The position numbers were made by a program, and so were the translations under genes. This document shows, piece by piece, positions 1 to 48,745 of a DNA stretch of 48,745 bases. Origin of the DNA: a virus; IMG/VR virus record IMGVR_UViG_3300036046_000008; one strand, written 5' to 3'. The notes below the pieces were generated by a model. It saw only the letters and a list, made by a program, of their open reading frames with translations. It did not search any database and had not been told where the DNA came from. Within the stretch, counting starts at the first letter, position 1. Each line of letters begins with the position of its first letter.

Positions 1-127
1 AGATTGACTACCGCCCCAAAAGCATCCACAGCGTATCTGGGGACTTCGGGGATCCTTCGAAAACCGGTCAACGAACCTCCTCGATCGGATGGAAATTAAC
101 GGTTTTGTAGGGTCGGGAAAAAGGGTC
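1..127. repeat. Window-end duplication: identical to 48619..48745 (terminal redundancy or circular-closure overlap)
   Basis: Direct reading: first 127 nt match last 127 nt exactly; repeat is truncated by the window edge so true length unknown. Confidence 0.9.
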
Positions 128-13197: not shown

Positions 13198-13202
13198 TAG
13201 TC

Positions 13203-13239
13203 AAAAATAAAAACTAAAGATCCTTGTGGGGATCTTTAG
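13203..13239 (-). terminator. Intrinsic-terminator-like hairpin (conserved-loop family)
   Basis: Plus CTAAAGATCC-TTGTGG-GGATCTTTAG preceded by A-run, so U-tract on minus-strand RNA; downstream of 13253..13516. Confidence 0.55.
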
Positions 13240-13252
13240 CTCTGAGAGGTTC

Positions 13253-13533: not shown

Positions 13534-13570
13534 GTAGGGGGTCTCATTATACGGCATGCAATTTTCGCGA
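13534..13570 (-). promoter_or_regulatory. Conserved promoter-like element copy (closest to consensus)
   Basis: Minus strand TCGCGAAAATTGCATGCCGTATAATGAGACCCCCTAC then GAAAGGAAG then ATG. Confidence 0.6.
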
Positions 13571-14566: not shown

Positions 14567-14580
14567 AACAACTCCTCCCA

Positions 14581-14616
14581 AAGAAAAACTAAAGAGCCTT
14601 GTTAGGGGCTCTTTAG
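14581..14616 (-). terminator. Intrinsic-terminator-like hairpin (conserved-loop family)
   Basis: Plus CTAAAGAGCC-TTGTTAGG-GGCTCTTTAG; U-tract follows on minus strand. Confidence 0.55.
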
Positions 14617-16659: not shown

Positions 16660-16696
16660 GTAGGGGGTCTCATTATACAGCATGCGATTCTCGCGA
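16660..16696 (-). promoter_or_regulatory. Conserved promoter-like element copy
   Basis: Minus strand TCGCGAGAATCGCATGCTGTATAATGAGACCCCCTAC then CGAAAGGAAG. Confidence 0.6.
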
Positions 16697-16709
16697 TGCC
16701 ATCGGCTCC

Positions 16710-16744
16710 AAAAACAAAACCATAGATCCTTGTGGGGATCTATA
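16710..16744 (-). terminator. Intrinsic-terminator-like hairpin (conserved-loop family)
   Basis: Plus ATAGATCC-TTGTGG-GGATCTAT with flanking A-run. Confidence 0.5.
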
Positions 16745-16760
16745 GCTTTAGAACTACTGG

Positions 16761-16904: not shown

Positions 16905-16920
16905 GGTCTTCTCCTTAAGT

Positions 16921-16955
16921 AGTGGGTCTCATTATATGGCATGCAATTTTCGCGA
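16921..16955 (-). promoter_or_regulatory. Conserved promoter-like element copy
   Basis: Minus strand TCGCGAAAATTGCATGCCATATAATGAGACCCACT. Confidence 0.55.
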
Positions 16956-17138: not shown

Positions 17139-17175
17139 GTAGGGGGTCTCATTATACTACGTGTTATTTCCGCGA
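17139..17175 (-). promoter_or_regulatory. Conserved promoter-like element copy
   Basis: Minus strand TCGCGGAAATAACACGTAGTATAATGAGACCCCCTAC. Confidence 0.55.
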
Positions 17176-17235
17176 CCTTCCTACAATTTTTGCTCCGGGG
17201 AATTTTTAGATTTTCAATTTATCCGAAGTGTGGGC

Positions 17236-17268
17236 AAAAGCTAAAACTCCTTGTAGGGAGCTTTAGCC
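17236..17268 (-). terminator. Hairpin (conserved-loop family)
   Basis: Plus CTAAAACTCC-TTGTAG-GGAGCTTTAG; downstream of 17296..17580. Confidence 0.45.
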
Positions 17269-17593: not shown

Positions 17594-17630
17594 GTAGAGG
17601 GTGTCATTATATGACGTGTATCAATCGCGG
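17594..17630 (-). promoter_or_regulatory. Conserved promoter-like element copy (variant)
   Basis: Minus strand CCGCGATTGATACACGTCATATAATGACACCCTCTAC then GAAAGGAGCACC ATG. Confidence 0.5.
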
Positions 17631-17833: not shown

Positions 17834-19018
17834 CTATAGGTATGTAAACGCCGGATATGCCTCAAACCCCTCAGGGGTATCAGTACGAATATACTCAGTA
17901 ACACGAGCACGCACCATAGGCGTATATCGGCCACGGACCGAGACAATATCCCCCAGAAAATAATCCTGCCCGTAGACCCATTGCGATCGTGTAGACACCT
18001 CGCCGTCGACAGCTTGCAGTTTTAGATGGGCTTCGAGAATACGTTCGCCTTCGTCAACATTATGCTCGTTCCACTCAGTGTTATCATACCCTTCTTCGGG
18101 ATCGCCCCCGTCAATATAAAACACTCGACGACTAAGACCGGTTAGCTGCCCTTCCGGGCGACGAGCAATAACGATGCCGTTATTAACAAGAATCGCTGCC
18201 TCGTTATGGTAAATATCCATAGAGAAGGTATAGTTCGGCCGGATCAAATCGTCGATCTCAGTGTCAAAGATCACAATGGCGTACGTAGTCTGGCCATGGC
18301 TCTTGTTAAATCCGCGATACACGTCCCACCGCAGGGCAGTAATGTTTGTATTTGTCGCGCCCGTAACAGCACCTGTAGACGAATCAATATCTATTACGCG
18401 CCCTGAGGAAGGCGGTCGGATCGTCCGAAAACCATAAGGGCGATACCGTAAAAATTTCTGAACTTCGGGCAGCGCTGGGCCCGGACGAATAAACCGTTGC
18501 TTGATCGGCCCCGCGTTGCCGCTCGTAATATCGGTGGTGCTATCCGTGACGACAGTGTTTAAGACTCCATCGTTCGAATTCTTCGCGCTCACAACCGGAG
18601 GCTGCCGAGTATAGTCATACGTGGACCGTTCATGTAGGGCATGGTAAATCAATCGTAAAGCTGATGCAAGCGGTGAGTGCGAGAATGCTTTGTACCGCTG
18701 AGCTCGCTTTCTCCCCAAGACGCGATGATTCAGAAATGACGTGATAGATCTCCCAGACACAATAAGCTTCTCAATGCCGGCGTCATCCGTTTCAATGCGG
18801 ATATTCTCGACCATCATTACCTCAGTTGTCTGGCGCAGACTGACTAGGGTTTCCATGGGCAACACAGCCAAAGTCTTACGAACCGCATACGTCTCTAGCT
18901 GAAACTCGCCAGGCTCGGCGAAGCGCTCAGTCCAGATCAATGAATGATAATGCGTAATCGGATCGCCCACTGGCAAAAAGGTCGACGAGCTCAAAACAAG
19001 GAAATCTAAAGTAGACAT
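17834..19018 (-). CDS. minor tail protein (tail-tip, Tal-like position)
   Basis: 394 aa; second gene after tape measure; start abuts upstream stop. Confidence 0.5.
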   Translation of the reverse strand: MSTLDFLVLSSSTFLPVGDPITHYHSLIWTERFAEPGEFQLETYAVRKTLAVLPMETLVSLRQTTEVMMVENIRIETDDAGIEKLIVSGRSITSFLNHRVLGRKRAQRYKAFSHSPLASALRLIYHALHERSTYDYTRQPPVVSAKNSNDGVLNTVVTDSTTDITSGNAGPIKQRFIRPGPALPEVQKFLRYRPYGFRTIRPPSSGRVIDIDSSTGAVTGATNTNITALRWDVYRGFNKSHGQTTYAIVIFDTEIDDLIRPNYTFSMDIYHNEAAILVNNGIVIARRPEGQLTGLSRRVFYIDGGDPEEGYDNTEWNEHNVDEGERILEAHLKLQAVDGEVSTRSQWVYGQDYFLGDIVSVRGRYTPMVRARVTEYIRTDTPEGFEAYPAFTYL

Positions 19019-19840
19019 CTAGATCCCCCAATGCCGGCTACGATACTCAAAAGAGATCCATTCAAACTGCGAGGGATTGGATGTCTGAACGACGTGCGTG
19101 CCGCCATGTAGCGTTAACCATTTCGATTCTGCTGTCAGCATCTCCAAAAATCGGATAAACGAAGCCTCTCTTTTTAGTTTAACCTGTCGCGTGGCCTGAT
19201 TCGTATCAACAATCAGACGATCGTTTACTGCAAAAGCCGATTGGAAGTCCATAAAGGTTCCATTTTGAATTGCGATAGAGAAAGTCGAAACGGCTGTCAG
19301 AAATTTAATCTCAAAGGCCACGCCGGTAGGAGCGAGCCCCACATTGTCAATTGTCCACGTACTTGTTGCCGGCGGGATAAAACGGGTTACGTCCGGCTTT
19401 TCCAGATAAGGTCCTAGACAATCGATCGTAATCTGGACTTCTGGTTTCTTATTGAACGGAACAATCTCAATACGCTTAACGTAACCAACCGTCTCAACAA
19501 CAGCTTCGTTCTGGGAGAGAAAAACCACGCGAATGGACTGATTTGCCGGATCAACGCCCGGACTCAGCAGCCCGTACAGATAGTAACGCAAATCGGAGAC
19601 TGTTTGGCCAATCTTGTAATCAGGGTTAAGGCCCACCCGAGCAACAATCTGCCTGCCTTGCGAGCGCCGATCTACAAACACCCCGCCCGGAGTATGCGTC
19701 TCGGCGAGAACGACATCGAGTTCAGGCGGACCTAAACCGTCGATATGAGCAACTTGATACGGGTCGGTCGCCTTGACCCCAAAGATCGGCAAGTCGATCT
19801 CGGTCAGACCAATGAGCCGGACTGCGTCAAATACAATCAT
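19019..19840 (-). CDS. minor tail protein (distal-tail, Dit-like position)
   Basis: 273 aa; immediately downstream of tape measure with ATGA overlap. Confidence 0.5.
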   Translation of the reverse strand: MIVFDAVRLIGLTEIDLPIFGVKATDPYQVAHIDGLGPPELDVVLAETHTPGGVFVDRRSQGRQIVARVGLNPDYKIGQTVSDLRYYLYGLLSPGVDPANQSIRVVFLSQNEAVVETVGYVKRIEIVPFNKKPEVQITIDCLGPYLEKPDVTRFIPPATSTWTIDNVGLAPTGVAFEIKFLTAVSTFSIAIQNGTFMDFQSAFAVNDRLIVDTNQATRQVKLKREASFIRFLEMLTAESKWLTLHGGTHVVQTSNPSQFEWISFEYRSRHWGI

Positions 19841-36045: not shown

Positions 36046-36270
36046 CTAAGGGCGTTCAATGCAATCGCCGACATCAAGATTGTTAGGATCCAAACCAGGA
36101 TTTGCTTCCTTGATTTGATCAACGGTCACTCCCCACTCTTTGCTCAAGGACCAAAGCGTATCGCCTTTCTTGACCACATGCCCATCGCACGCCTCAGGAG
36201 TGACGTCTTCAATCGCGTCCGCAGTATCCCGAAGACCCTGAAGGAGAGCTCTCCATCGGGCATTACTCAT
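36046..36270 (-). CDS. LysM domain protein
   Basis: 74 aa; VVKKGDTLWSLSKEWGVTVDQIKEANPGL LysM-like block. Confidence 0.6.
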   Translation of the reverse strand: MSNARWRALLQGLRDTADAIEDVTPEACDGHVVKKGDTLWSLSKEWGVTVDQIKEANPGLDPNNLDVGDCIERP

Positions 36271-36309: not shown

Positions 36310-37131
36310 TTAGCCATCTTCTTCCATTTTGACCAGCTTGGCTTCAAGACGTTGAACCGTCTTCTCGATCTGCCGCAACCGCGCGTTCCCCATCATCGGA
36401 CTTGGATTGTTGGGGTCTCTCTTCTCGCCCTTAGCATTGTAGTCTCCTAGGGTCCGATTAATTCTTGCCGCAATAGCTTCAATGTCTTTCTCACTGAGAG
36501 CCACGTCTGTTTCGCCTCCTTCTTCCGAATTCCCTTGAGCAAGTCTGAGAACCTGGGGTAGATTCAACGCGCCAGTGTCCCAGTGCGAATTCTCTGGAAC
36601 CGAGGCATGCGGCAAATGGCCGCGAAAGGCTTTATAGGCTTGACCGGACAACCTCTGAGGCGCGCTCAGCCCATACCTGGGGTTGCGAGTAAACTTTGGT
36701 ACGAGAGCCAGAGGAATCCCCCAATGTTTATTCAACCAGAGCGCAATGCGAGCCAGAAACGCTAGGTGCTTCTCAGTGAAGTCTCCGACCCAAAGTCCTC
36801 GGTAACGATCGGACAGAACACGATCCGAAAACGAAATGACCTCAATCTGAAAAGCACGATCCGTGTTAGTCTCCACGCCGCCTGGCAGATTTGCCAAGGC
36901 GCGAGAAGACATATTAGCCGGGAAATGTTGACGAATCTGTTCAGTACGAGGATCAATGGTGATAGTTGGAGCGGTAGAGCCCCCAGAATAGCCCGGCCAG
37001 GAAGTACCCTCTGTCGTATGCCAGACACACTTGTACAACGCGTCCGACCAGACGACGCCGCGGTACTTATTCGCATACCACTGCGAAGACCGGTCTGCTC
37101 CAGGCAAATAGAGTTCAGTCATCGGCTTCAC
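36310..37131 (-). CDS. putative endolysin (amidase-like peptidoglycan hydrolase) with C-terminal coiled coil
   Basis: 273 aa; WHTTEG and NSHWDTG blocks; adjacent to LysM gene. Confidence 0.45.
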   Translation of the reverse strand: MKPMTELYLPGADRSSQWYANKYRGVVWSDALYKCVWHTTEGTSWPGYSGGSTAPTITIDPRTEQIRQHFPANMSSRALANLPGGVETNTDRAFQIEVISFSDRVLSDRYRGLWVGDFTEKHLAFLARIALWLNKHWGIPLALVPKFTRNPRYGLSAPQRLSGQAYKAFRGHLPHASVPENSHWDTGALNLPQVLRLAQGNSEEGGETDVALSEKDIEAIAARINRTLGDYNAKGEKRDPNNPSPMMGNARLRQIEKTVQRLEAKLVKMEEDG

Positions 37132-38713: not shown

Positions 38714-39220
38714 TCACCCCACAACGACATAAAGCGTATCAGGATCTTTAGTAACAATCGCGTCATACTCGGCAAGGGTCCCGCTCCACCATTGGCCTGC
38801 CTCACCTTGAGGCCCCTGCTCACCTTGAGGCCCCTGCTCACCTTGAGGCCCCTGCTCACCTTGAGGCCCCTGCATCGGCCCGATGTTGACCCAATCAGAA
38901 CCATCCCAAATATAACCGTTGTTGGTGTCTTCGGTAATGTACAAATCGTTCAGATCAGCGCTAACCGGCAAATTTGCAAACGATGGCACAACTCCTACAA
39001 TAGTAACGCCCTCTCCACGAGGCCCAGGCGGACCGACAGGACCTTGGATGCCCTGAGGACCAGTCGCCAACGCTTCGCCGAGCTCTGAGAAGGGCGTAAT
39101 TCCATCCCCAATATAAAAAACTCTAAGATCGGTAACGAACCCGATCTCACCGTCTAGCAAGATAGGATTTGAGTTGAGCCATTCGCTTTCAGTTCCTCGC
39201 CGAATTCGAATTACATACAT
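38714..39220 (-). CDS. tail fibre protein with collagen-like (GPQGEQ)x4 repeat
   Basis: Track ORF trimmed to ATG with AAGGAG RBS; N- and C-termini paralogous to 40245..41804. Confidence 0.6.
   Translation of the reverse strand: MYVIRIRRGTESEWLNSNPILLDGEIGFVTDLRVFYIGDGITPFSELGEALATGPQGIQGPVGPPGPRGEGVTIVGVVPSFANLPVSADLNDLYITEDTNNGYIWDGSDWVNIGPMQGPQGEQGPQGEQGPQGEQGPQGEAGQWWSGTLAEYDAIVTKDPDTLYVVVG
38801..38872. repeat. Perfect tandem repeat, 18 bp x 4 (CTCACCTTGAGGCCCCTG)
   Basis: Seen in sequence; encodes GPQGEQ collagen-like triplets in 38714..39220. Confidence 0.9.
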
Positions 39221-39240
39221 CAAACGCTCCTTACCCGTAG

Positions 39241-40224
39241 CTACTTGGAGAGCCACGCACAATCGGAAGAAGCCAGCGACTTAAGAAATTCCCGCGTCCG
39301 TGGTTCACCATCAGCCAGATACCAATTAACGCCCGGACGGTTATTCCGCGTCGAATTAAACCAAGCCACAGTCATAAATCGTTTGGAAGCCACGATAACC
39401 GACCAAGTAGAAACCCATTCGTCAGCAGTATGCGTACCAGTTTCGCCGAAACCAAACAAACCAGCGTACCGAGCCCGCTCTGCCCACTTCAGAATTCGGC
39501 CCACGCGGTTTGCGGGCCCATCTTTGGGGTCGCTAAGGGTGCCGCCGTGATAGACGTCCATTCCTAAAAGCTTCCAGCGCTCCAACAAATCTTGGGGGAA
39601 CCATTCAGCAATCTCAGTGTCAGTCCACGTGTCATGCGCGCCCCAAGGAAATCCATTCATGATAGGGCACAACGTTACTTGGCCAGTGCCACCAAGCCGA
39701 TCCGCAACATCCAGAAGACGCCGCCAGGTACGTGTATAGTGATCATACGTCATGTCGCCCACGGGCTCATGCGCCCACGTGATCAATGCCGGTTGAGACC
39801 ATGTCTGGTACTCCAAAACCCGACGCTCAAAATCAGCGTCAGTAAAATTAAGGCCCGAAAACGATCCCCACGGCAACGAGCCCCGTGCCCACGCCGTCTG
39901 CGCCACTGACCGTTCTTTTTCAAGCTCGGTCGGCTTACAATAATAACGCTGCACACCAGGCAAGCCTAGACGAGCAACTTCATCTTCGTAAGTAGGCAGA
40001 GGGTGGGCCCATCCGAGATAAATCTTGCTCGGCTGATGACCCGGGATCACCCCTTCGGAAGGCTCGCCGTCACCGGGATCGGAACCGCCGTCTTCGTCAG
40101 GCTCGTCTAGACGGGCAAGTACTTCCATTTTGAAGTCCAAAAACTGCTTTTCAAAATTCTCTTGCTGCGCCTTTGCGCTGGCCTTATACTCTTCAAACTC
40201 AGCCGAGGTCGGGACTTCAACCAC
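39241..40224 (-). CDS. tail-associated protein, possible glycoside hydrolase-like domain
   Basis: 327 aa, Trp-rich; between two fibre genes; function is a guess. Confidence 0.35.
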   Translation of the reverse strand: MVEVPTSAEFEEYKASAKAQQENFEKQFLDFKMEVLARLDEPDEDGGSDPGDGEPSEGVIPGHQPSKIYLGWAHPLPTYEDEVARLGLPGVQRYYCKPTELEKERSVAQTAWARGSLPWGSFSGLNFTDADFERRVLEYQTWSQPALITWAHEPVGDMTYDHYTRTWRRLLDVADRLGGTGQVTLCPIMNGFPWGAHDTWTDTEIAEWFPQDLLERWKLLGMDVYHGGTLSDPKDGPANRVGRILKWAERARYAGLFGFGETGTHTADEWVSTWSVIVASKRFMTVAWFNSTRNNRPGVNWYLADGEPRTREFLKSLASSDCAWLSK

Positions 40225-40244
40225 AACGATCTCCTTTGACGGGG

Positions 40245-41804
40245 CTAGACGATTGCATACAATGTGTTTGGATCTTTAGTGCCAATTGCATCATAAGCGG
40301 CCTGGGACCCTACCCATTGACGCCAAACCGTCTGGCCATCTTCTTTAATGCGGCCACCAACGAGATTCACGTCGTTAGCTGGAGTAAGCTGCAAATCCCC
40401 GCCAGTTAACTGCTCGACAACCGTCTGGTCAGCCTCTGTAGAATTTCGAATCTCCAAAGTGCTGCCCACGGTACGAATGCCTTTGTTGAAGTTAACTCGC
40501 CCAAGAACCCCAATCCGCATTTGAACAGCGCCAGCGAGATTCAAAACTTCGAGCATGTTGCCGGAGCCGCCCTCGGCTTGATCCCGAGCAATGATCTTCA
40601 TAGCCACTTCACCAGGAGCGGCGTCATTCGACGTCCTAAGGTTCCCCTTCTCGTTGACCCACGTCGCTCGTTTACCCCCGTACCGAATGTCCACAATGTC
40701 AGCGTCGGTAATGGTGGTGGACGTCGCCGTCCGCTCAACCACCAAACCGCCTACATCTTTACTCGAATTGATGATTGTCATCTTGCGGCGCAGCGTCGTT
40801 CCGTTTAGGCCCACACCCATAATAATGTCCCCAACATTACGGGCCTCGCGGACCTCAAAGAAGTCACCCAGAGAAGCTGGTGTCGACCCACTCTTGAACC
40901 CATGCACACGCAAAGCCACAGTGCTATCTTTGGCCGGATCGAACCTGCCTTCGCCGAACTCATTAAATCCACCAGTGCGGACACCATCGTACTTGAAATG
41001 CAACCGATCAGGCCAGTTCGCAGCCGGCGACGCATCGTTCACAATATTGAACTGTGCAACCTGCATGTTCGTGGGGTCGGTAATGGCATAATCCGCGTCA
41101 GTCTTGGGGCGCTGTTGCCACAAATATCGAGCGTTAGCGGTGCCCTCAGTGATACCGCTGCCGCCAACCAGAATAGCCCAGGCCCCGTTCTGTCTTACAT
41201 ACTGTTGGCCATCATTAGGAGCCTCCTCGACTGCGTCGTCTGGGGCGACTGTTACAGCCCAAGTCCCGTTTTGCCGCACGTATTGCGATCCATTACTTGG
41301 GGCGTCTCTCAAATATTGCGTATGAGGATTGGTGGCAGCGGTGTGCTGCGACAGCAAAGTCGACGCCACGCCGACGTTCTCTTTCCCGGCCAGAGCAGTA
41401 TTAAAAACCGCGCCGTCGGCAACGGACAAATATCGCTCATCAATATCCAGCCAGAAATTGTTATACCGCGCATAGATGGTGCCATCGGCGGGGGCATCGG
41501 TAATTCCAGCCCCTCCCCCACCGACTACGGCAGTCCAGGTCCCATCTCGCCGAGCGTATTGTTCGCCATCCAGGGGTGCTTCTTCAACAGGTCCTGGCGG
41601 GCCAACCGGTCCGTCTTCACCGGGAGGACCAGGAATCCCTGTAGTATAAGGGAGCTCAGTCCAAGGAGTAACCCCATCACCGATCTTGAACTGATTAAGA
41701 TCTGTGACATATGCAGGTTCACCGGAACTGAGAATTGGGTTAGCCAGAGTCCACTGTGCATCGGTGCCCCGGCGAAGACGAATAGTGAAAGGTTGAATTG
41801 TCAT
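40245..41804 (-). CDS. tail fibre protein with short collagen-like segment and triple DG.QYVRQNG.WA repeats
   Basis: 519 aa; GIPGPPGEDGPVGPPGP; three internal repeats; termini paralogous to 38714..39220. Confidence 0.6.
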   Translation of the reverse strand: MTIQPFTIRLRRGTDAQWTLANPILSSGEPAYVTDLNQFKIGDGVTPWTELPYTTGIPGPPGEDGPVGPPGPVEEAPLDGEQYARRDGTWTAVVGGGGAGITDAPADGTIYARYNNFWLDIDERYLSVADGAVFNTALAGKENVGVASTLLSQHTAATNPHTQYLRDAPSNGSQYVRQNGTWAVTVAPDDAVEEAPNDGQQYVRQNGAWAILVGGSGITEGTANARYLWQQRPKTDADYAITDPTNMQVAQFNIVNDASPAANWPDRLHFKYDGVRTGGFNEFGEGRFDPAKDSTVALRVHGFKSGSTPASLGDFFEVREARNVGDIIMGVGLNGTTLRRKMTIINSSKDVGGLVVERTATSTTITDADIVDIRYGGKRATWVNEKGNLRTSNDAAPGEVAMKIIARDQAEGGSGNMLEVLNLAGAVQMRIGVLGRVNFNKGIRTVGSTLEIRNSTEADQTVVEQLTGGDLQLTPANDVNLVGGRIKEDGQTVWRQWVGSQAAYDAIGTKDPNTLYAIV

Positions 41805-41813
41805 GAGCTTCTC

Positions 41814-42206
41814 CTAGGGGCTGCCGCCGTCGATCAGCACAGTGTCAAACGGGAGGGGTGGACTCCAAGCATTGCCCTCGCGATAAACGTTTAGGCGCCA
41901 TTCCATCTCTCGGAGCTGGTCCTCAAGCGCATTGATGAGGAACGACGTATTCGGAGGATCGAAAAGTAGACGCACGCGAAGATAGACGTAAGACTTAACC
42001 GGATTGAGCATCTGAGAATTGCCCAGAAGCTCTTCCCAAGTCGTTTCGGGCCCTTCGACAGAGAACCCCTCTGCAGGGCCGATCCCCAACTGACTTACGT
42101 ACATCAACGCCGAATTAATGTGCGTCATAATGTCTAAGTCGAAGACGGTGTACTCCTCGGCAAGACCAAGAATCTTCTTTGTACTGGTCAAGATACTGTC
42201 AGTCAT
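41814..42206 (-). CDS. hypothetical protein
   Basis: Track ORF 130 aa. Confidence 0.5.
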   Translation of the reverse strand: MTDSILTSTKKILGLAEEYTVFDLDIMTHINSALMYVSQLGIGPAEGFSVEGPETTWEELLGNSQMLNPVKSYVYLRVRLLFDPPNTSFLINALEDQLREMEWRLNVYREGNAWSPPLPFDTVLIDGGSP

Positions 42207-44539: not shown

Positions 44540-47221
44540 CTAAGCGAGACTAGTCTTAAGAGTGGTGAGACTTACCCCAATAGCGTCAGCCACTTCTGCC
44601 TGAGTGTAGCCCTGCTTAAGCAAAGCCTTAGCCTGAGAGGTCTTCGTAGAAGTCATCAAAAGAGATGTACGTGGAGTGGCCAATTCCTTTACCTTCTTTG
44701 CATCGGAGTTCCTTAGAATTGATTCGAGCTTACTAGTTGTGATAGCGCCTGCTTGAATCGCTTCCCATTCCTTAGGCGAGATGTCGATACGAGCTTTCCC
44801 TGCACCAGTCCTAGCTCTCGCCTCGACCAACGCCATACCATCGATCTTCTTCTTCTCCTCCCGAGTCATGTCGGGATTGTCGCGCCGTTTTGCAGCCCGG
44901 ATAGCATTGGCTACAATTTGAGCCTGGCGTTCTCGAGGGGCGTTCTTCTCAGCCAGGTTAAGCTTGGCATCCAGCGACTTAACTTCTTTCTCATACACCT
45001 TCTTAGCTGAGGGAGAATAGGGAATGTTTTTGACCGCAAGACTTTCTTTCCTAGCCCGATTCGCAAGCGCTTTCATCCGATTGGAGTAAGTCGCATACTC
45101 AGTCTCAATTCGCGTCCCCGCAGACAGCGTAAATGCGTCGTCGGTTTCCGCAAGCTTCTCGCTTCGTTGTGTCTTCGAGACGACTTTACCAGTCTTGTCG
45201 ACGTAGGTACGGCCAGTGTACTCATACACTTTACGTCCTGTGGCGGGATCAATCGGGCCACCTTTAGACATACGCCGCGGCTGGCGTTCGGGAACATCAA
45301 CGCGAGAACCTGCAAGAGAGATCAACGTGGATGCGCCTTTATCGGATCGCCCCAGATACTTCTCTTTTAGAGCAGGGATTCCGTTGTCTAGATACGATTG
45401 TTTGTAATTCAGATTGTGTTTCTCAGCATCGATAACAACCATGGAATGTTTAACAGCTCTAGCAATTTCCGTTTGTGTTGCGCCCATGATAGTCATGTCA
45501 GTAATCAGATTTGAGATGGAACCCATCTCCATCTGTTTACGATCACTGCGCATCGTCGGCATACCCTCATAGGCGGGATACTCTCTGATGGGATCGAAGT
45601 TCTGCAACGCCTTCAGAGGCGGAGAGGTTTTGACTTGCCCTCGATCGTTCGGAATGACAATGACCGTATCCCCATCAAAGTCTGCACCAGACAAACGCTT
45701 AGCTACCTCAGCGTTGATACCAATCGCGTCTGGGGCGTTACCCAACAGTTTCTTTGTTGCCGGGTCCCGATTGTTAACTACCAACTCAGGAATCTCAAAC
45801 GTCCCACCGTGAGGGTGCCGGACTAGCACCACACGTTCGCCATTACGATACGTAGGAGCATACACCTCAGTAGGCTTCATCGAATTCGACGGAATAAGAA
45901 CTTTAGTAGACTGCCTTGGCATGGCGGCCGCAGCAAGATGTACGGCGGCGGCGTCGGCCTCATCACCGAACTTCCGCAACAGGTCGCGCTTGATGACAGG
46001 ATTTGTCAACGACATAATCTCATCGAGCGCAGTTTCGTTTTTATTGTAGAGAAAATCAAGCTGCTGCCTGGCAAGCTTTACATCCTGCTTAGAAAGAAAC
46101 TGAGATGACAACTGTCGGTTCCAAGTGTCCCAGGTTCCTTCTTCATAGATGAGGTTCATAGCAGATGTAACTTTTGGCTTGCCATCCGCACCCAGCGAGA
46201 TGATTTGGCGATTAATGGATGAACCGAATGGGTTGTCCATGTCAATCTCACCCGTCTTGCCGACGGTCTTCATAGGCTTCATAGCGTCAAGCTTATTGCC
46301 CGTACTCGACTTATTAGTATTAAAAACCAAGTCGACGCCGGCAGGCAGATCATCTTTGTAGACAGCCATCCCTTTGAGAAAGTGCGTCCCATCAACAGCA
46401 ACCCGGACCTGCGCGTAATTACCTCCACCAAGTGACAAATCAGCCACGCCCGGGCGCACAAAGATCACACCATCGGCATCGGCGCCGCCATCTTCTGCGT
46501 AATTAATTCCAATTCGCTTTGAATCCACCGACAATGGAGGAAGAAGGCCAAGGTTTGTGCGACCTCCATCATCAGAGAACTCATTGATCTGACGTAGATT
46601 CGCACGGTTTGCCCACGCTTCCTTCTGCGTTACCGACTCAGGAACCAGTACTTTATACTCGGTCAACAAGCCAGTTCCAACCTGCTCAATCTTGAACGAC
46701 CGAGTTGCATAACCTTCCTCGGAAAGCATTGCAACGGCCGCCGCAAGCTTTTCCTTACTGATACCCAACTGACGCTCGACGCCGGTACCAATATCGATCA
46801 TACCTTTTTCGTCAACGTTTGACTTCAACACGTCTGCAATGTTGCGCAACTGCTGAGTCTTATCAAGCTGGCCGGCTTTTAACAGCTCTCTAACAGAACT
46901 CTCATTGATACCCAACCGCTCCCCGATGACCGTATTCGCGGCGCCTTTTGCTTTGAGGCGCTGCGCAAACGTAATATCAGCCGCTCTTGCTTCCGCCTTA
47001 GCAATCGACTTCAGCGCCCGAAGTTCTTTAGTCGTGAGACCAACGCCTTCCGCAACCTGAGCTTCTGTCATCCCTTGCTTCTGCATTGACGATACGTAAT
47101 CCAAAAAAGATTTACTACGATTTGCGACGTTGCCGCCGGAGCCCCAAGGATAACGACCAGAACGACGAAGAATGCCGTAATGCTGAAGGGAATTGGTCTC
47201 ATCTTCCGTAATAACGAACAA
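44540..47221 (-). CDS. Non-canonical RNA polymerase-like protein (multisubunit-RNAP beta-prime-like double-psi beta-barrel motifs, YonO-like) with N- and C-terminal HTH-like segments
   Basis: 893 aa; VRHPHGGTFEIPELVV ... GADFDGDTVIVIP at aa 466-523 resembles beta-prime R.P..H..FEP...NADFDGD; GRSDKGAST at aa 624-632 resembles beta GRHGNKGVIS; HTH-like segments at aa 50-115 and 865-893; TTG start with GAGAGGAGA RBS. Confidence 0.55.
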   Translation of the reverse strand: MFVITEDETNSLQHYGILRRSGRYPWGSGGNVANRSKSFLDYVSSMQKQGMTEAQVAEGVGLTTKELRALKSIAKAEARAADITFAQRLKAKGAANTVIGERLGINESSVRELLKAGQLDKTQQLRNIADVLKSNVDEKGMIDIGTGVERQLGISKEKLAAAVAMLSEEGYATRSFKIEQVGTGLLTEYKVLVPESVTQKEAWANRANLRQINEFSDDGGRTNLGLLPPLSVDSKRIGINYAEDGGADADGVIFVRPGVADLSLGGGNYAQVRVAVDGTHFLKGMAVYKDDLPAGVDLVFNTNKSSTGNKLDAMKPMKTVGKTGEIDMDNPFGSSINRQIISLGADGKPKVTSAMNLIYEEGTWDTWNRQLSSQFLSKQDVKLARQQLDFLYNKNETALDEIMSLTNPVIKRDLLRKFGDEADAAAVHLAAAAMPRQSTKVLIPSNSMKPTEVYAPTYRNGERVVLVRHPHGGTFEIPELVVNNRDPATKKLLGNAPDAIGINAEVAKRLSGADFDGDTVIVIPNDRGQVKTSPPLKALQNFDPIREYPAYEGMPTMRSDRKQMEMGSISNLITDMTIMGATQTEIARAVKHSMVVIDAEKHNLNYKQSYLDNGIPALKEKYLGRSDKGASTLISLAGSRVDVPERQPRRMSKGGPIDPATGRKVYEYTGRTYVDKTGKVVSKTQRSEKLAETDDAFTLSAGTRIETEYATYSNRMKALANRARKESLAVKNIPYSPSAKKVYEKEVKSLDAKLNLAEKNAPRERQAQIVANAIRAAKRRDNPDMTREEKKKIDGMALVEARARTGAGKARIDISPKEWEAIQAGAITTSKLESILRNSDAKKVKELATPRTSLLMTSTKTSQAKALLKQGYTQAEVADAIGVSLTTLKTSLA

Positions 47222-48152: not shown

Positions 48153-48689
48153 TTATATGCTTTTTTGGTCAGATCGCGCGAAGAACGCAAAACGGTAAGA
48201 AGTTGGGAACGCCGGCTCGCCTTCTTGAATAGACGCAAAAAGATCATGAAGGAGGATCCCGTAGAACATGCACGTGATCCAAGCGTTCCCCACAACCTCG
48301 TTCGTGTCCAAGTTGATCACTTGTTTACGTCGCACCCACGAATATGGCCAGAACGTATATAGACCAAGACGATGACCTTGATGGTGGTACTTCATCGCGA
48401 ACCATCGAGGGCGCCAAGACAAATTATCGACATGCGAGTTCGATAGGTCGTAATCGTGATGTATGACACTATCAAAGTATTCGGACGGCGGGGGATCTAA
48501 GAAAGCGCGTGCCACAAGAAACGCAACCGGGCAAATGCGTCGCTCACCGTTGACATACAAACCCACATAGTAACGACCCTGTTGGTTTGAGCAAGGACGG
48601 AGCAGTCGATCTGTGTCGAGATTGACTACCGCCCCAAAAGCATCCACAGCGTATCTGGGGACTTCGGGGATCCTTCGAAAACCGGTCAA
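48153..48689 (-). CDS. HNH homing endonuclease (NUMOD4-like N-terminus)
   Basis: 178 aa; IPEVPRYAVDAFGAVVN and HHDYDLSNSHVDNL; TTG start after GAGGAGG RBS; 5' end lies inside the terminal duplication. Confidence 0.6.
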   Translation of the reverse strand: MTGFRRIPEVPRYAVDAFGAVVNLDTDRLLRPCSNQQGRYYVGLYVNGERRICPVAFLVARAFLDPPPSEYFDSVIHHDYDLSNSHVDNLSWRPRWFAMKYHHQGHRLGLYTFWPYSWVRRKQVINLDTNEVVGNAWITCMFYGILLHDLFASIQEGEPAFPTSYRFAFFARSDQKSI

Positions 48690-48745
48690 CGAACCTCCTC
48701 GATCGGATGGAAATTAACGGTTTTGTAGGGTCGGGAAAAAGGGTC

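Follow-up and report, generated by a model that had tools for sequence, protein, structure and literature searches.

A putative host-recognition cassette with two modular fibre genes and a tandem collagen-coding repeat in a siphovirus genome

Alleles of the hyaluronidase gene hylP of streptococcal prophages differ by the presence or absence of a collagenous segment. Staphylococcus phage 80alpha carries several fibres on its virion, among them FibU (gp68, PDB 6V8I), a small baseplate fibre of collagen-like type that contains about 10 G-X-Y triplets. The N-terminal domain of FibU serves as the anchor, and the protein forms a thin fibre of about 9 nm with a distal knob, which is dispensable in laboratory infection (PMC7048315). 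Collagen-like repeats are reported to separate the domains of the S. thermophilus antireceptor (Duplessis and Moineau 2001, as cited in PMC5601072). In ORF8 of the Guarani virophage, an 81-nt deletion across 27-nt collagen-like repeats was found alongside an expansion of host range, and the authors also cite the view that collagen-like repeats are recombination hotspots (PMC7242381). Here we describe a locus with two fibre genes that contain collagen-like segments in a 48,745-nt stretch of viral DNA, IMG/VR record IMGVR_UViG_3300036046_000008 (the whole stretch is called the window below). A preliminary description, made from the letters of positions 38714-41804, had taken these genes for two tail-fibre paralogs with shared termini, the shorter of which carries a perfect 18-bp repeat in four copies.

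Both open reading frames (ORFs) exist as described and lie on the minus strand (Table 1). We refer to them as the short fibre and the long fibre. The interval also holds a third gene, located between the two, which the preliminary description did not mention. Taken together, the data suggest that the region is a host-recognition cassette with two modular, presumably trimeric fibres, and that the repeat is a recent slippage expansion within one of them. We estimate the probability of this reading at roughly 65%.

Each fibre begins with a match to Pfam Mtd_N (PF18454, a 37-position profile with a gathering cut-off of 26.3 bits) and ends with a match to Phage_tail_C (PF24243, cut-off 23.7 bits). 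In the window, only these two genes carry both end modules. BLASTP of the long against the short fibre aligned the N-terminal blocks with 38 of 71 residues identical (54%, E = 4e-20) and the C-terminal blocks with 15 of 23 residues identical (65%, E = 6e-07). Between the blocks, only low-complexity G-X-Y sequence was aligned. The shared ends and unrelated middles of the two genes are therefore real. However, the ends are catalogued, widespread mobile modules that are not private to this genome, so that they do not argue for recent paralogy. Mtd_N-type modules with 52-63% identity were found in Arthrobacter, Gordonia, Rhodococcus and Cellulophaga phages and in cyanophages, and with about 47% identity in crAss-like phages. 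The proteins in question are annotated as minor tail protein, tail fibre, hydrolase, esterase or hyaluronidase. Identity of the N-modules to these unrelated phages was as high as that between the two genes of the window. Moreover, numerous database proteins of about 170-200 amino acids (aa) join Mtd_N, Collagen and Phage_tail_C. In the PDB, the N-terminus of the long fibre matched the N-terminus of the 6x3m hyaluronidase (E = 2e-5), and a profile of short-fibre orthologues matched the N-termini of HylP proteins (6x3m with E = 2e-10, 2c3f, 2dp5, and 2yvv).

The start codon of the short fibre is the ATG at 39220, with an AAGGAG ribosome-binding site in front of it. Full-length orthologues (P0024-P0030) were 54-69% identical by BLASTP, and a second metagenome scan added one further orthologue (L175). 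Searches of IMG/VR with both fibre proteins returned module-level matches and no full-length orthologues, and a scan of a genome collection found no short-fibre orthologue in a named organism. The two collagen tracts, of 6 and 9 uninterrupted triplets, gave a match to Pfam Collagen (PF01391) of 28.1 bits, which is marginal with respect to the cut-off of 27.2. The knob between them has no second copy in the window. It is also kept in many phage tail-fibre families, as PHROG 3904 and 819 match aa 48-142 of the short fibre. As a side observation, the exact 168-aa sequence was missing from a collection of 15 billion proteins that contained both neighbour genes of the same contigs; repeat-rich proteins may be under-represented in such indices.

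The four 18-bp units, read as (GPQGEQ)x4 in the preliminary description, are exact. The perfect 72-bp array is far beyond chance. Tandem Repeats Finder placed it at 38796-38873 with 4.3 copies and a score of 147, and the next-best array of the window scored 54. The tract that contains the array, collagen tract 2, comprised 8, 9, 9, 10, 10, 10, 12, 12 and 14 triplets in the nine orthologues. Its repeats differed from phage to phage: (GPQGEQ)4 in the window (18 bp x 4.1, perfect), (GIQ)4 in L168 (9 bp x 4, perfect), (GAT)3 in L177 (9 bp x 2.9), (GIQ)2 in L165, (GDK)4 in L175 (at the protein level only), and none in L167, L176 and L178. The tandem duplications are independent and lineage-specific. 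There are no synonymous differences among the four units of the window, whereas the orthologues use mixed codons, which marks the expansion as recent. Perfect repeats are common in phage collagen genes. Of 80 IMG/VR loci with collagen-like relatives, 60 contain a perfect tandem repeat, in frame, of 18 nt or more; its length reaches at least 36 nt in 10 loci, at least 54 nt in 3, and at least 72 nt in 2. With 73 nt, the array of the window lies in the upper tail of this distribution (top ~3% of 80). We read it as evolutionary length drift between lineages rather than as a programmed switch.

In the long fibre, the proline-rich collagen-like segment noted earlier was confirmed with 6 triplets, although it has no match to Pfam Collagen. 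Where the preliminary description had counted three DG.QYVRQNG.WA repeats, we find four units of the form DG..Y.R..G.W. These units resemble the T4 fibritin foldon. They matched Pfam Fibritin_C with 43.6 bits (cut-off 21) and the foldon structures 1rfo, 4ncv and 1v1h in the PDB, and a low-confidence AlphaFold2 (AF2) model placed a hairpin at every one of them. A helical NPH.QY segment lies between units 2 and 3.

As a whole, the long fibre is a mosaic. Residues 1-212 resemble P0002 and P0003, residues 215-305 resemble P0006, residues 331-486 resemble P0004 and P0005 (54-56% identity), and residues 494-519 resemble P0007. P0004 is encoded after tail genes, in the tail module of the unrelated phage L171. 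The syntenic long fibres of the uncultured relatives L167 and L168 lack the distal region. In L167, a 593-aa homologue of the long fibre lacks Phage_tail_C and is directly followed by a stand-alone 63-aa ORF (2138-2329) that has this module and shows homology to the C-terminal ~65 aa of the window's long fibre. This ORF is likely to be the remnant, or scar, of a replacement of the distal domain.

The order of the cassette genes is the same in the window and in three uncultured relatives, L165, L167 and L168. Identity to these relatives was 75-78% for the large terminase (TerL), 61-69% for the short fibre, and 58-63% for a 385-aa FN3-like protein encoded at the same position. It was 52% for the head-tail connector-family protein and 56% for the long fibre, the latter over aa 1-212 only, and the middle gene had no match. 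In the slot between the fibres, L167 encodes a 235-aa protein and L168 (3271-8961) a 1896-aa protein with matches to BACON_2, DUF4082 and DMFA2_C, not the 327-aa enzyme-like protein of the window. No other part of the cassette varies as much as this slot. The short fibre is a conserved orthologue across the relatives, and the long fibre keeps its first ~210 aa and swaps its distal part. The preliminary description had suggested a length-variable or recombination-shuffled receptor-binding module. Variation of tract 2 over evolutionary time (8-14 triplets) and replacement of the distal part of the long fibre between phages partly bear out this suggestion, but the two genes do not shuffle with each other, as discussed below.

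A word-indexed search with the middle protein retrieved only the protein itself. In an exhaustive HMMER search, however, 92 remote homologues were found over aa ~50-325. In an alignment of 43 homologues, H152-E153 was invariant and G260-E261 near-invariant. The family profile matched Lic26A of C. thermocellum, a member of glycoside hydrolase family 26 (GH26), with E = 4e-10, and both conserved glutamate motifs aligned to the catalytic HE(A)NGD and I-A-E-F motifs of this enzyme. AF2 predicted a (beta/alpha)8 barrel with a mean predicted local distance difference test (pLDDT) score of 91.4. The best Foldseek match of the model was 2cip, a GH26 lichenase (E = 9e-11, TM-score 0.73), followed by GH10, GH5 and GH164 structures. 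No Pfam family matched the protein or any of 42 homologues. The model and the profile thus point to a divergent clan GH-A glycanase from a family outside the curated Pfam models, probably a depolymerase of surface glycans.

We propose the following picture. The ~45-aa Mtd_N/HylP-type domain of each fibre would dock on the tail tip. This orientation is suggested by FibU, whose N-terminal domain anchors while the collagen fibre projects outward, by the Mtd_N proteins of cultured actinophages, which hold the position of receptor-binding genes, and by the long fibre, in which the N-terminal ~210 aa are the part conserved together with the rest of the virion. In Arthrobacter phage Ranunculus, for example, the gene for an Mtd_N protein directly follows those for the tape measure and two minor tail proteins. 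Rigid, trimer-forming spacers would come next: a collagen triple helix in both fibres and, in addition, four foldon-like hairpins in the long one. As collagen and foldon elements are obligate trimer formers, both fibres would be trimers. The 26-aa Phage_tail_C module would be the distal cap and would keep the three chains of the collagen helix in register from the C-terminus. As a rule, collagen helices depend on a nucleation domain at one end.

The two fibres may divide the labour. The long fibre would be the main, exchangeable receptor binder, its distal part being swapped by recombination between phages. The short fibre would be a conserved accessory collagen fibre comparable to the non-essential FibU, with a length of about 15-20 nm, since 18 + 27 collagen residues at 0.29 nm per residue amount to ~13 nm, to which three small globular parts are added. 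The GH26-like glycanase encoded between them would probably degrade or bind a host surface glycan. The 18-bp x4 array would stem from recent replication slippage in the one collagen tract that tolerates changes of length, with each unit adding six residues, or ~1.7 nm of triple helix, and such changes of length might affect adsorption.

The shared terminal blocks around unrelated middles might also be expected if the two genes were recent paralogues that exchange segments via their conserved ends, by gene conversion or shuffling. At the DNA level, however, the longest similarity between them extends over 55 nt at their 3' ends, with 73% identity; no long exact match was found and nothing was detectable at the 5' ends, leaving no homology able to sustain recombination. 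Long-type N-domains were 77-86% identical among four phages and short-type C-modules 77-91% identical between phages, as opposed to 55-59% and 64%, respectively, between the long and short types within a genome. Nor does the within-genome identity (54-59%) exceed that to unrelated phages; Arthrobacter and IMG/VR proteins, for instance, reach 61-63%. Exchange is therefore highly improbable. Long-type and short-type modules are old, separately evolving lineages, and the two fibre genes do not exchange with each other. A further rival, in which the array is a contingency locus, assumes frequent slippage during replication and a mixed population of virions whose short fibres differ by increments of 1.7 nm, a form of bet-hedging against differences in host surface thickness or in receptor depth. 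Because the units are perfect and in frame, gain or loss would leave the protein intact. In addition, tract 2 varies between 8 and 14 triplets by independent duplications, only about 3% of the 80 related phage collagen genes have arrays of this length, and the 81-nt deletion in the Guarani virophage (PMC7242381) sets a precedent. On the other hand, four 18-bp copies make a short array, for which we would expect a low slippage rate. The perfect repeat is small or absent in most orthologues, so that a high rate of variation is not a trait the orthologues have in common, and the 80alpha analogue is dispensable. Four other assemblies were 100% identical to the window; the two full-length ones, from the JGI (Joint Genome Institute) and from different samples, have exactly four units, but with no other difference between them they are not independent. 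Exact-flank DNA scans of metagenome and viral contigs found no further contigs with the array, and the two remaining assemblies, contigs that break inside the repeat, are uninformative as to copy number. Overall, we consider a contingency locus quite unlikely. That the four units are an artefact of repeat collapse or expansion during assembly is very unlikely. Two contigs of the k-mer-graph assembly Logan do end after the first 26 nt of the array, which is the usual behaviour of de Bruijn graphs at repeats. However, 72 bp is shorter than the 127-bp assembly overlap and, as we assume, than the reads, the two separate JGI assemblies agree base for base, and neither the reading frame nor the conserved C-terminus is disrupted. 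Finally, the match of both fibres to the Pfam "Major tropism determinant N-terminal domain" raises the question of whether a diversity-generating retroelement (DGR) acts on one of the genes, with Mtd-like switching of tropism as in Bordetella phage BPP-1. The match is confined to the N-terminal module of ~40 aa, and neither Pfam nor the PDB revealed a C-type-lectin variable domain. A genome-wide search for direct repeats found no pair of template and variable repeats, and there was no reverse transcriptase among the proteins scanned, a subset of all ORFs. This possibility can be regarded as essentially refuted.

The placement of the fibres on the virion deserves separate consideration. If both were neck, collar or head fibres of the whisker type, they would act in assembly or environmental sensing like T4 fibritin. 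Consistent with this, the long fibre has four foldon-like units and a Fibritin_C match, the PHROG matches include "fibritin neck whisker" families, and the cassette starts right after the connector-family gene, upstream of terminase and head genes and not after Tal. In addition, gp4 of mycobacteriophage Bxb1, which shares the C-terminal module, was deposited under the name "tail collar fibers". However, this PDB entry (9D93) is a tail-tip complex. In cultured actinophages, the genes for Mtd_N proteins take the receptor-binding position behind those for Dit and Tal, and their products carry annotations such as minor tail protein, hydrolase or esterase. In the window, promoter-like motifs begin immediately downstream of Tal, which we read as the end of the structural operon, and there is accordingly no other fibre candidate after Tal. 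The cassette also includes a glycanase and varies among relatives in the way of host-range determinants. A long coiled coil of the fibritin type was not found in the long fibre, only short helices being predicted (aa 133-166, low-confidence AF2 model). A neck or collar location is thus rather unlikely, and we maintain tail-tip fibres as the preferred reading. Several points weigh against it all the same. The orientation with the N-terminus as anchor and the placement on the virion are drawn by analogy, and the anchor domain of FibU is of a different, BppU-like type. Bxb1 gp4 is named a collar fibre, a head-tail connector gene adjoins the cassette, and the foldon-like units recall neck whiskers. 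That Phage_tail_C trimerizes is a hypothesis. For the long fibre as a whole, the AF2 model, based on a mosaic alignment of 9 sequences, was unusable (pLDDT 36), so that the distal domain has no usable model. The adsorption role of the GH26-like protein is deduced from the position of its gene. As this protein lacks an Mtd_N anchor, it could instead be an accessory lysis protein.

If the proposed picture is correct, the same N-terminal socket and C-terminal cap frame a minimal collagen fibre and a large mosaic fibre in one genome. Comparison with the relatives separates three modes of change at the locus, namely replacement of the distal part of the long fibre, drift of a short-fibre tract by slippage, and replacement of the gene between the fibres. 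Phage_tail_C, with its 26 aa, would be a candidate for a compact registration tag for short collagen helices, provided that its trimerizing role is true. A bolder version holds that (GPQGEQ)n is an actively slipping length-tuner, so that virions with fibres of 3, 4, 5 or more units would occur side by side in one lysate and differ in steps of ~1.7 nm, and that Mtd_N and Phage_tail_C are a universal pair of socket and cap. Fibre reach would then alter adsorption to hosts that differ in the thickness of their surface layer, and phages could drop any spacer or binding domain between the two modules. We regard this version as doubtful, with odds strongly against it. Tail fibres are already well known to contain collagen-like repeats and foldon-like units and to undergo modular exchange, and current understanding is left unchanged.

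Table 1. Positions of the fibre cassette, its modules and other features in the window.
Feature	Position	Strand	Description or basis
FN3-like protein gene, 385 aa	37553..38710	-	3-nt gap downstream of short fibre; FN3-like repeats and conserved C-terminal domain
Short fibre gene, 168 aa	38714..39220	-	Mtd_N, collagen tract 1, 45-aa knob, collagen tract 2, Phage_tail_C
Short fibre, Phage_tail_C module, aa 144-167	38720..38791	-	Pfam PF24243, 46.3 bits
Short fibre, collagen tract 2, aa 118-144, 9 triplets	38789..38869	-	length-variable hotspot, nine orthologues
Four perfect tandem 18-bp units, CAGGGGCCTCAAGGTGAG, encoding (QGPQGE)x4	38801..38872	-	identical in the two other full-length assemblies
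Short fibre, inter-collagen knob, 45 aa, VTIVGVVPSFANLPVSADLNDLYITEDTNNGYIWDGSDWVNIGPM	38873..39007	-	invariant columns in orthologue alignment
Short fibre, collagen tract 1, aa 54-71, 6 triplets	39008..39061	-	length of 6 triplets in 8 of 9 orthologues
Short fibre, Mtd_N / HylP-type module, aa 4-42	39095..39211	-	Pfam, 47.3 bits, profile positions 1-37
Middle gene, 327 aa	39241..40224	-	predicted 33-residue N-terminal helix, acidic disordered linker, GH26-like (clan GH-A) TIM barrel
Long fibre gene, 519 aa	40245..41804	-	Mtd_N, 6 G-X-Y triplets, four foldon-like hairpins, mosaic distal region, Phage_tail_C
Long fibre, Phage_tail_C module, aa 497-519	40248..40316	-	Pfam PF24243, 49.3 bits; 77% identical to C-terminus of P0007
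Long fibre, mosaic distal region, aa 215-493	40326..41162	-	comparison with P0002-P0007; putative receptor-binding part
Long fibre, four T4-fibritin-foldon-like beta-hairpins, aa 76-90, 104-118, 168-182, 195-209	41178..41579	-	motif scan and internal tblastn
Long fibre, collagen-like segment GIPGPPGEDGPVGPPGPV, 6 Pro-rich G-X-Y triplets, aa 56-73	41586..41639	-	read from translation
Long fibre, Mtd_N / HylP-type module, aa 8-46	41667..41783	-	Pfam PF18454, 49.0 bits, profile positions 1-37
Head-tail connector-family gene	41814..42206	-	Pfam Phage_connect_2, E = 4e-37; upstream border of cassette
Tal	17834-19018		
Dit	19019-19840		
Core of ~47-nt intergenic element	796-813, 2370-2387, 2424-2441, 13534-13551, 16660-16677, 16919-16936, 17139-17156, 17594-17611	+ (genes -)	

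The first and last 127 bp of the window (1-127 and 48619-48745) are an exact direct repeat. The second JGI assembly has the same length and is circularly permuted, and together these observations indicate that the window is a closed assembly of a phage genome of ~48.6 kb. The true genome length is 48,618 bp, the 127-bp repeat being the overlap of the circularly closed assembly. The G+C content is ~52%, and every long ORF is on the minus strand. The TerL protein is 74-76% identical to that of Rimavirus, a genus of Streptomyces phages, and the phage is an actinophage-like siphovirus and a distant relative of this genus. A megablast search of the region against GenBank phages gave no matches, and thus no close relative at the DNA level in that set. 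Virion genes for portal, a protease-capsid fusion, major tail protein, tape measure, Dit and a short Tal (Sipho_Gp37 family, 394 aa) are present.

On the minus strand, an HNH endonuclease gene precedes the genes for the connector-family protein, long fibre, 327-aa protein, short fibre and FN3-like protein. These are followed by genes for small membrane proteins, endolysin, a LysM protein, two small proteins, and TerL. The gaps between the cassette genes are 3-20 nt, and a scan for promoters and terminators across the cassette gave matches at chance level. Rimavirus phages also have HNH, endolysin and connector genes upstream of TerL, but no fibres there. The connector gene occupies the same position in L168, L169, L170 and L163. 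In L178, a gene of ~383 aa directly 3' of the short fibre encodes a protein that is 59% identical to the FN3-like protein in an alignment. An fn3 Pfam match was obtained for 2 of 5 orthologues of the FN3-like protein (E = 1.6e-6), and their profile matched the Fn3-like protein 3mpc in the PDB (E = 5e-4). The 385-aa protein is a candidate partner or minor tail protein.

The lysis genes of the window encode a 273-aa endolysin (36310-37131, minus strand) and, separately, a 74-aa LysM protein (36046-36270, minus strand). In L165 (3505-5328), a 70% identical LysM domain is the C-terminus of a 607-aa M23/PG_binding endolysin, the catalytic part of which is only 24% identical. By this comparison, the lysis module appears to be shuffled as well.

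Elsewhere in the window, we observed a conserved intergenic element of ~47 nt with the core GTAGGGGGTCTCATTATA on the plus strand. Its coding-strand sequence is TCGCGAAAATTGCATGC..TATAATGAGACCCCCTAC, and a ribosome-binding site comes next. The window has 8 copies of the core (Table 1), where 0 would be expected. All copies are in the non-structural half of the genome, and none is near the fibre cassette. The element is a candidate for a phage-specific early or middle promoter. An 893-aa protein (44540-47221, minus strand) matches PHROG 4291 ("RNA-dependent RNA polymerase") and, weakly, Pfam RdRP (E = 0.006), and has a C-terminal helix-turn-helix. It may be a YonO-like two-barrel RNA polymerase able to read the promoter-like motif. 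A family of stem-loops similar to AAAGATCCCCACAAGGATCTTT lies between early genes at 13201-13241, 14576-14616, 16707-16747 and 17228-17268 and probably represents intrinsic terminators.

How does the locus compare with known systems? With Mtd of BPP-1 it shares the N-terminal module, but the C-type lectin domain and the DGR with its template and variable repeats are not found in the window. The HylP1, HylP2 and HylP3 proteins (2C3F, 2DP5, 2YVV, 6X3M) are homologous to the window fibres in their N-terminal ~50 aa, and in 6X3M this part is followed by G-X-Y triplets, as it is here. The triple-stranded beta-helix that forms the hyaluronate lyase body of HylP has no counterpart, as the PDB matches cover only aa 5-72 of the query. 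The window fibres are not hyaluronidases. The foldon of T4 fibritin matches the long-fibre motif A-P-x-D-G-x-x-Y-x-R-x-x-G-x-W, and we assume by analogy that the foldon-like units trimerize. However, fibritin has a single C-terminal foldon and a long segmented coiled coil, whereas the long fibre has four internal tandem units and Phage_tail_C at its C-terminus.

Bxb1 gp4 contains Phage_tail_C at aa 330-355 (51.3 bits), and the lysis genes and the large terminase gene are found downstream of its gene, as they are for the cassette of the window. It has neither Mtd_N nor a collagen tract, but a PTR-like repeat instead. The protein is not an orthologue, as the last ~24 residues alone match, and only weakly (E = 0.14, PDB search). 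Collagen-like repeats are also hotspots in viral attachment genes. In the Guarani virophage and in the S. thermophilus antireceptor, in-frame G-X-Y repeats are reported to separate host-recognition domains, and deletions inside the repeats arise spontaneously and can accompany a change of host range. For these variants there is experimental evidence, while the case of the window is one of variation between lineages alone. FibU differs from the window fibres by a BppU-like Ig anchor in place of Mtd_N, by a single collagen tract and in that no perfect DNA repeat has been reported for it, and its C-terminal part is not resolved in the structure. Like the short fibre, it is small and collagen-like, and its C-terminus KIWTGTENEYNYIYQKDPNTLYLIKG (6v8i aa 365-390, the last 26 residues) matches the Phage_tail_C block of the window.

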